From positions 1 through 64,000 of IMG/VR virus record IMGVR_UViG_3300044878_000031: 64,000 nucleotides of DNA; one strand, given 5' to 3'. This document shows, piece by piece, positions 44,281 through 44,925 of the stretch; the first letter of the stretch is position 1; each line of letters starts with the position of its first letter. A program made the position numbers and the translations under genes. Source of the stretch: a virus. A model generated the notes under the pieces. It was not told the origin of the DNA and searched no databases. It saw only the letters and a list, made by a program, of their open reading frames with translations.

Positions 44281-44925
44281 CATAAAGAGACGAAGACTCG
44301 CTAACACGCCCATGAGTAGGAATGCTAACGAGTCTTGTCCACACCACACCGAAAGCCGCTTAGGAGAACGACTGAATGAAGCACACGAAATGCTTCCCCA
44401 AGTGCATTCAGACAAGAGTGGCCACTAATGACCCGAATGAACTTGAGGCTGCATTTAGACGCTTAGACCGACCACTCGAAAGCGCACGGTCCGACTATCT
44501 ACAACTTGTGCCCTTCGCGGGGACACCTTACCTTTTGGCTAACCTAATTCTTGCGAGGACTTAGGTCGGCACCTTACTACCCCGTTGTTATAAGGTATAG
44601 GTACAACAGGGCCTGGCCCTAACACGGGCGAGGATACACACAGGCGACAAGCCGCGCTCGCAGCGGCCGCCTTATCGTGTCAAGCTACCCTCTCTCTTAG
44701 AGTCGTCTACACTTACTGGTTGACCTTGAAGGGGACCTGATTTGGGGTTCTGTCCTAAAAGTAGTAACAGTTCCTACGACGAACAGGGGATTAGCCTGTG
44801 AGGGTACAACATGGGGTGAGCGGGAAAGCCGAAACCTTCCAGACAGTTAATGTCCGACGGGGAGGGACCTGTCCAAGAGCTGGGTAGATAAAGTCCAGCT
44901 CAAGACTTGCGATACGCTCACTTCT
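44281..44925 (-). ncRNA. Large (~640 nt) structured non-coding RNA, unknown family
   Basis: No credible ORF; many stems whose G-U pairs and UUCG/GCAA loops fit the minus strand. Confidence 0.65.

Follow-up and report, generated by a model that had tools for sequence, protein, structure and literature searches.

The tRNA island and its terminal RNA gene

The stretch of DNA analysed here (the window, 64,000 nt) comprises the first 64 kb of an IMG/VR virus record of 112 kb, itself ~41% complete. Marker genes identify the phage as a chimallivirus, i.e. a nucleus-forming jumbo phage: the window contains genes for a nuclear shell protein (34036–36084) and a PhuZ tubulin (51414–52388), and it also encodes split RNA polymerase beta subunits and a phiKZ-type DNA polymerase. 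The closest cultured relatives are jumbo phages of Xanthomonas, Burkholderia and Ralstonia, with DNA polymerase identities of ~40–45%. Sequencing runs containing parts of the stretch, all of them DNA or of uncertain type, derive from sediment, soil, compost, wastewater and urban samples, and the contigs of three wastewater runs, which are labelled RNA-Seq and are probably DNA, contain relatives of the phage.

ARAGORN and the Rfam tRNA model locate 10–11 tRNA genes on the minus strand between 45429 and 48800, the last of the operon being tRNA-Leu(UAA) (45429–45515, minus strand), in which the CCA is encoded. A Tad2-like (anti-Thoeris) ORF (46852–47541, minus strand; PF11195, E 1e-21) lies within this tRNA island in the same orientation as the tRNAs. 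Between tRNA-Leu and the gene that concerns us here there is an SNase-like ORF (44929–45400, minus strand; Pfam PF00565, E 3e-11), whose start is approximate, the longest version reaching 45477 and overlapping tRNA-Leu. From the end of this ORF at 44929 to the next ORF at 44138 extends an ORF-free gap of 790 bp, and inside it lies the gene for a large RNA of ~640 nt (44283–44923, minus strand). All genes from ~49,090 to ~44,283 lie on the minus strand, which has no phage-type terminator signal between about 49,095 and 44,287. This suggests that the tRNAs, the Tad2-like ORF, the nuclease ORF and the large RNA probably form one transcription unit, with the large RNA as its last gene. A scan for sigma-70 promoters and classical terminators was uninformative for this phage. 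The 117-aa protein encoded downstream belongs to no Pfam or PHROG family, its Atlas matches (scores ≤0.85) are uninformative, and as a query against viral contigs it recovered no relatives by that route; a protein partner for the large RNA is thus unsupported.

The initial annotation had proposed a folded non-coding RNA of ~640 nt, encoded on the minus strand as the last element of the tRNA operon, with boundaries (44281–44925) that are essentially the same as ours. The 5' end, at 44923, is where conservation begins, with AAGUGAGCG, and the 3' end at ~44283 corresponds to the U-run of the terminator, whose conserved tail runs on to 44269. The large RNA stretch contains 8–13 stop codons per frame in all six frames, and no conserved ORF is common to the 12 homologues described below. 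Folding of 44281–44925 (minus strand) gives a minimum free energy of −234.6 kcal/mol against −207.9 ± 6.9 kcal/mol for dinucleotide shuffles (z = −3.85). The proposal had been staked in part on a folding energy better than that of shuffled controls, and none of the 20 shuffles folds as well as the large RNA.

At its 3' end the large RNA has the terminator signal of the phage itself, a hairpin with UUUAUGCCGU directly after it. This terminal hairpin and the CUUUAUGCC after it (44279–44338, minus strand) make up an intrinsic terminator of the chimallivirus type. All copies carry a strong hairpin and then the shared CUUUAUGCCGUCU at the 3' end, the window terminator reading GAC…GUC UCUUUAUGCCGU and that of the long-form homologues GGGGCUUUAUGCC. 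The hairpin plus CUUUAUGCCGU at the 3' end of the large RNA recurs as a signal of the same type at 13 other window sites. A GC-rich hairpin directly before YTYTATGCC(G) is thus present at 14 sites, mostly intergenic: 1700(−), 1732(+), 6991(+), 9322(−), 15511(+), 16162(−), 22420(+), 40113(−), 44287(−), 50335(−), 54107(−), 58440(+), 60110(+) and 62383(−). The intrinsic terminator of phiKZ, as defined by long-read transcriptomics, consists of a hairpin and then YTTATKYYGT (PMC10914365), and the GC-rich hairpin at the 3' end of the large RNA, placed directly before its signal, fits this motif. A phiKZ-type terminator accounts only for the last ~60 nt of the large RNA. The conserved ATGCCG after the U-run suggests that the signal may do more than terminate, for example as a promoter or a processing site. 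A 13-mer downstream of the large RNA, ACCTATATTATCC, was considered as a repeated signal and is not repeated. After the phuZ operon there is a possible second structured stretch (50337–50914, minus strand), which ends at the terminator of this type at 50335 and has a folding z of −3.2, but it overlaps a 131-aa ORF (50596–50991) and may be coding.

A fold maintained by compensatory changes

The RNAalifold consensus structure consists of 173 pairs in 28 helices, and the covariation counts rest on seven copies of the short form. Standard pairs occupy 96.6% of cells, compared with 36–44% when the 3' partners are slid by 1–3 columns. Double-sided changes are observed at 53 pairs against 2–9 in the slid controls, which retain the relatedness of the sequences, and these counts partly reflect shared inheritance because a single narrow phage clade supplied all 12 copies. 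None of 500 shuffles reaches the observed paired share, the number of double changes or the covariation score, and five long-form copies yield the same core structure. The covariation in related phages that had been put forward as a check of the fold is there to be seen. G·U pairs make up 172 of the 1205 paired cells (14%) on the minus strand; on the opposite strand or in DNA these cells become C·A and pairing falls from 96.6% to 83%. The G·U pairs consequently fit the minus strand only, which argues for a fold at the RNA level and on the strand of the tRNAs. Structure at this position is selected as RNA, and 44283–44923 is almost certainly a real structured RNA gene.

The 5' core contains two junction domains. 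Domain 1 (44816–44921, minus strand) is closed by P1, which encloses a junction with three arms, P2, P3/P3a and P4, the last of them capped by a UUCG loop. The 11-nt loop of P2, ACUUUAUCUAC, is identical in 10 of the 12 copies, and compensatory changes are found in each of P1, P2, P3a and P4. Domain 2 (44681–44813, minus strand) is closed by P5 around a second junction with five helices, P6–P10, and contains the invariant unpaired runs GUCGUAGGA, AACCCCAAAUC and GUAAGUGUAGAC. Invariant unpaired junction nucleotides of this kind are expected of tertiary contacts or ligand sites rather than of a passive trailer. Most of the stems that the initial annotation had named are kept in relatives, and most of these carry compensatory changes. 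The GUGAGCG/CGCUCAC stem of P1 (44915–44921 / 44816–44822) becomes GUGAGUG/CACUCAC in relatives, and UACCCUC/GAGGGUA, which lies within the P5 helix 44800–44813 / 44681–44692, becomes UGCUUUC/GAAAGCA and AGCUUUC/GAAAGCU. The GGAAGGU-UUCG-GCUUUCC hairpin (44823–44840) and the GAGCUGG/CCAGCUC stem (44895–44901 / 44877–44883) likewise exist and are kept across relatives.

The remainder of the molecule is built from hairpins and long arms. P12 (44643–44671, minus strand) presents UGCGAG in its loop (44657–44662). P16 (44543–44565, minus strand), one of the hairpins named initially, with a CUCGCAA loop, exists and is kept across relatives; its stem covaries at four of eight pairs, and its loop contains CUCGCA (44552–44557) in 11 of the 12 copies and UUCGCA in the remaining one. 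P18 (44508–44526, minus strand) has a conserved GCGAA loop on a stem in which relatives replace GUGUCC/GGGCAC entirely by GUGGGA/UCCCAC, with four of six pairs double-changed. The long arm P20/P21 (44379–44464, minus strand; ~26 bp) ends in an apical loop of ~22 nt that contains the palindrome AGUGGCCACU (44417–44426). Here one of the earlier pairings has to be redrawn: a CTGAATG/CATTCAG hairpin had been read from the sequence, but CUGAAUG pairs with an upstream CAUUCGG and not with the downstream CAUUCAG. Both the consensus of the relatives and the single-sequence MFE place CUGAAUG/CAUUCGG within a 21-bp helix (44433–44456 / 44388–44411). The long terminal stem that had also been described is present in the window (44296–44338), but as a single-sequence stem it is not kept across relatives.

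A search for pseudoknots by covariation returned two weak candidates, ACAAG/CUUGU, with one double change and in short forms only, and GUAGAC/GUCUGU, which involves the terminator tail. A long-range helix GGUG/UGCC (44570–44573 with 44279–44282) is probably spurious, as its 3' strand is the generic terminator tail. GGA-N4-ACCCC was considered as a repeat of the family and set aside, since it occurs only 1–3 times and inconsistently across the family.

Short and long forms and their relation to known RNAs

Relatives were sought through the flanking nuclease gene, through exact conserved words and with a covariance model of the 5' part. These routes gave 12 distinct copies, all from uncultured chimalliviruses whose DNA polymerases are 81–88% identical to that of the window phage. 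The short form is represented by seven copies of 652–668 nt, the window among them, and the long form by five copies of 848–854 nt, in which two additional segments, distant in sequence, pair with one another. The architecture is that of a conserved 245-nt 5' core joined to either of two exchangeable 3' modules. Among the copies the core is 70–99% identical, and the remainder is 61–92% identical within the short form and 43–57% between forms. The window core is 90–92% identical to those of two long forms (L049 and L020) and 81% identical to that of a short form (L038), and the 3' part of the window is only 54% identical to that of a long-form copy whose core is 92% identical. This discordance between core and 3' similarity suggests that phage lineages have exchanged their short and long 3' modules.

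The arrangement of the locus also differs among the copies. At six of the 12 loci (L038, L039, L043, L045, L048 and L049), both forms included, the SNase-like gene is absent and tRNA-Leu(UAA) abuts the large RNA with a 1-nt gap, which is probably the ancestral arrangement. At five loci (window, L044, L003, L004 and L005) tRNA-Leu(UAA) and the large RNA are separated by the SNase-like gene (~500 bp), which sits precisely at their boundary and in this behaves as a mobile element inserted into the operon would. In L020 tRNA-Leu has been lost. The L020 record also has, upstream of the large RNA (1913–2041, minus strand), a stretch of 129 nt that the tRNA model scores at 42 bits; it is a tRNA-shaped gene with a large insertion and resembles an element at 48673–48799 of the window.

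Beyond this clade the large RNA was not encountered. Covariance-model searches of 45 other chimallivirus records, taken whole, gave no match apart from two noise matches (E 0.1–0.9); the DNA polymerases of these records are 25–62% identical to that of the window phage, the exception being a fragment at 81% that stops short of the island. Neither blastn against 50,697 phage records nor an exact-pattern scan of 185,579 prokaryote genomes returned a match. No tRNA genes were detected in five related chimallivirus records (G005–G007, G010 and G011), whose DNA polymerases are ≤62% identical and which include complete genomes of ~222 kb. The lack of any match in these 45 records, together with the lack of tRNA genes in the five searched for them, suggests that the large RNA either originated within a lineage-specific RNA island or was brought in along with it.

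We compared the RNA with the 4227 models of Rfam 15, at gathering score over the window and at E≤10 over the RNA in six members (window, L003, L038, L049, L020 and L043). No family was found within the large RNA at either threshold, matches to ES222 and snoR130 (E~9) being noise. Membership of GOLLD, ROOL, OLE, raiA and HEARO is thereby excluded as these families are currently modelled, as is membership of the group I/II introns, RNase P RNAs, tmRNA and Csr/Rsm sponges. The initial annotation had been unable to match the RNA to GOLLD or ROOL by eye, and neither covariance model matches it. ARAGORN and the Rfam tRNA model find no tRNA, tmRNA or cloverleaf within 44269–44923 or in the homologous stretches. 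The large RNA contains a decamer, GACAGAACCC, that is shared with E. coli M1 RNA; as a link to RNase P it is a chance resemblance, because the helix that contains it covaries from CUGU/ACAG to UGGU/ACCA. Searches of the available literature returned no description of the large RNA. A survey of structured RNAs in IMG/VR reported motifs that average 67 nt (PMC10690425) and could contain fragments of it. The family is probably undescribed, in line with the earlier suggestion of a possible new class, and we place it in a new class of its own among the large phage RNAs associated with tRNA genes.

The setting is nevertheless that of GOLLD and ROOL, as the RNA is phage-encoded and lies next to tRNA genes, which it abuts directly (tRNA-Leu(UAA)) at the six loci given above. 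GOLLD, too, is a large non-coding RNA (often >800 nt) with several domains, is found in phages and prophages, and has tRNA genes as neighbours, at times with one immediately upstream. The two also share a division into one conserved and one variable half, and the assembly of GOLLD uses self-complementary kissing loops. The large RNA differs from GOLLD in being confined to one clade of nucleus-forming jumbo phages. ROOL is similar in size (~580–660 nt), is borne by phages and prophages, often near tRNA islands, and has no known protein partner, but its helices and junctions are unrelated and its Rfam model does not match. An older parallel is found in the stable RNAs of the T4 tRNA region (species 1 and 2, rnaC and rnaD), structured non-tRNA RNAs that end the tRNA cluster, are co-transcribed with the tRNAs and are released by the nucleases that mature them. 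These T4 species are only ~120–140 nt long, in contrast to 640–850 nt and two junction domains here, and have no sequence or Rfam relation to the large RNA. In GOLLD, which has been found downstream of a tRNA-Met, the 3' region is universally conserved and the 5' region less so (bioRxiv 10.1101/2024.12.08.627333), the reverse of the large RNA, in which the 5' 245 nt are conserved and the 3' part is variable.

Possible self-association and role of the large RNA

The apical loop of P20/P21 contains GGCC in all 12 copies, and in 10 of them GGCC is the centre of a perfect palindrome of 6–12 nt. The palindrome varies by lineage (AGUGGCCACU, UGUGGCCACA, GUCUGGCCAGAC and CGGCCG), and its flanks covary (AGU..ACU, UGU..ACA, GUCU..AGAC and C..G). 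The two other copies are L004, with a palindrome GCCUAGGC beside GGCC rather than around it, and L005, which has the GGCC core and no palindrome. A simple hairpin loop needs no self-complementarity, and the invariant GGCC therefore suggests pairing between two copies; together with the covarying flanks it is a hint of self-association. The same nucleotides could equally form a small local hairpin with a 3–4 bp stem and a GGCC loop. A second candidate contact is offered by the UGCGAG loop of P12, which is complementary over 6 nt to the CUCGCA loop of P16 in nine of the 12 copies; in L043 the partner loop reads UUCGCA and still pairs with UGCGAG through one G-U. Three long-form copies without UGCGAG keep CUCGCA, so that this loop may have another partner. 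GOLLD and ROOL adjoin phage tRNA islands, and in their cages self-interacting kissing loops supply part of the contacts between the two halves (bioRxiv 10.1101/2024.12.08.627333). By analogy, copies of the large RNA may bind each other through the GGCC palindrome and the complementary UGCGAG/CUCGCA loops and so give a dimer or a larger particle, a suggestion that we make tentatively and think more doubtful than probable.

The reading that we prefer, with a probability of roughly 60%, is that the large RNA is a processed, stable, trans-acting structural RNA encoded by a stand-alone gene of an uncatalogued family. It would share a transcript with the tRNAs (and, in the window phage, with the Tad2-like and SNase-like genes), from which the tRNA-maturing nucleases would release it to accumulate as a compact stable species. 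We infer excision and accumulation from the layout of the operon, from the stable RNAs of T4 and from the position of GOLLD after a tRNA-Met. Since the large RNA follows an mRNA (SNase) in the window phage, it could also remain there as a 3' UTR. Self-bound copies might then build a dimer or a larger RNA-only particle like those of GOLLD and ROOL. On this stronger version the gene would specify a further, structurally unrelated self-assembling RNA from a jumbo-phage tRNA operon, forming dimers or cages via its palindromic GGCC loop and kissing loops, which must be considered speculative. The cellular role would then likely be tied to tRNA or translation, or to host defence during infection.

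Instead of assembling with itself, the large RNA might act as a decoy or sponge that titrates a host protein or an RNA-sensing defence, such as an anticodon nuclease, a CBASS- or Cas13-type sensor or a global RNA-binding protein. Phage tRNA clusters counter tRNA-cleaving defences, and the Tad2-like anti-Thoeris gene and the many tRNAs of the island, as well as several conserved single-stranded C-rich runs in the RNA, would suit such a role. A sponge of this type is nonetheless unlikely: the family conserves no repeated binding motif (GGA-N4-ACCCC is inconsistent), there is no Rfam match to sponge families of the CsrB/Rsm type, and the large RNA contains no tRNA-like element.

We think it quite improbable that the RNA is a cis-acting trailer of the tRNA operon which protects the precursor from 3' exonucleases, guides processing or insulates the next gene. 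The large RNA is always 3'-terminal in its operon, terminator included, and in the window phage a protein-coding gene directly precedes it, both of which a trailer would explain. A terminator hairpin alone suffices at the 13 other window sites, however, whereas the large RNA adds 600–800 nt to it, with two junction domains, unpaired runs that do not vary, long-range helices and modules that have been exchanged. The 76–99% identity of the 5' core across phages whose DNA polymerases are 81–88% identical argues in the same direction.

The size and multi-junction architecture of the RNA fall within the range of large ribozymes, and chimalliviruses carry group I introns. Such introns have also been described in LUZ24 and other phages (PMC10914365). 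A group I/II intron, an RNase P-like RNA, a relic of either or a new self-processing RNA is still very improbable, as no intron, RNase P, tmRNA or self-cleaving family is matched at E≤10 in the six members, ARAGORN finds no tmRNA, and the large RNA interrupts no gene, having a complete tRNA or an ORF stop upstream and a terminator downstream. Dense inverted repeats in a gene-free gap might bring to mind an RNA of the plus strand or a DNA-level element (a replication origin, packaging site or recombination hot spot), but this is scarcely credible given the loss of pairing when the G·U cells are read as C·A on the plus strand or in cruciforms, and given UUCG and GCGAA loops and a terminator that read correctly on the minus strand only.

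Large, highly structured bacterial and phage RNAs without a protein partner are rare, and GOLLD and ROOL, the two phage examples, form giant RNA cages of unknown purpose. If the large RNA is the trans-acting structural RNA that we favour, an independent family with an unrelated fold in the same niche would show that selection acts on the niche rather than on the fold, and this would point to a function linked to tRNA or translation, or to host defence. If self-assembly were also true, phages would have evolved RNA-only particles next to tRNA genes on three or more occasions, and comparing the naturally occurring short and long versions would be a ready way to learn what such particles do. The family is small and bounded, with a fixed 245-nt core, two 3' versions and a GGCC palindrome as a handle for mutation, which makes it a practical target for cryoEM and oligomerisation experiments. 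It would be the first such RNA tied to nucleus-forming phages.
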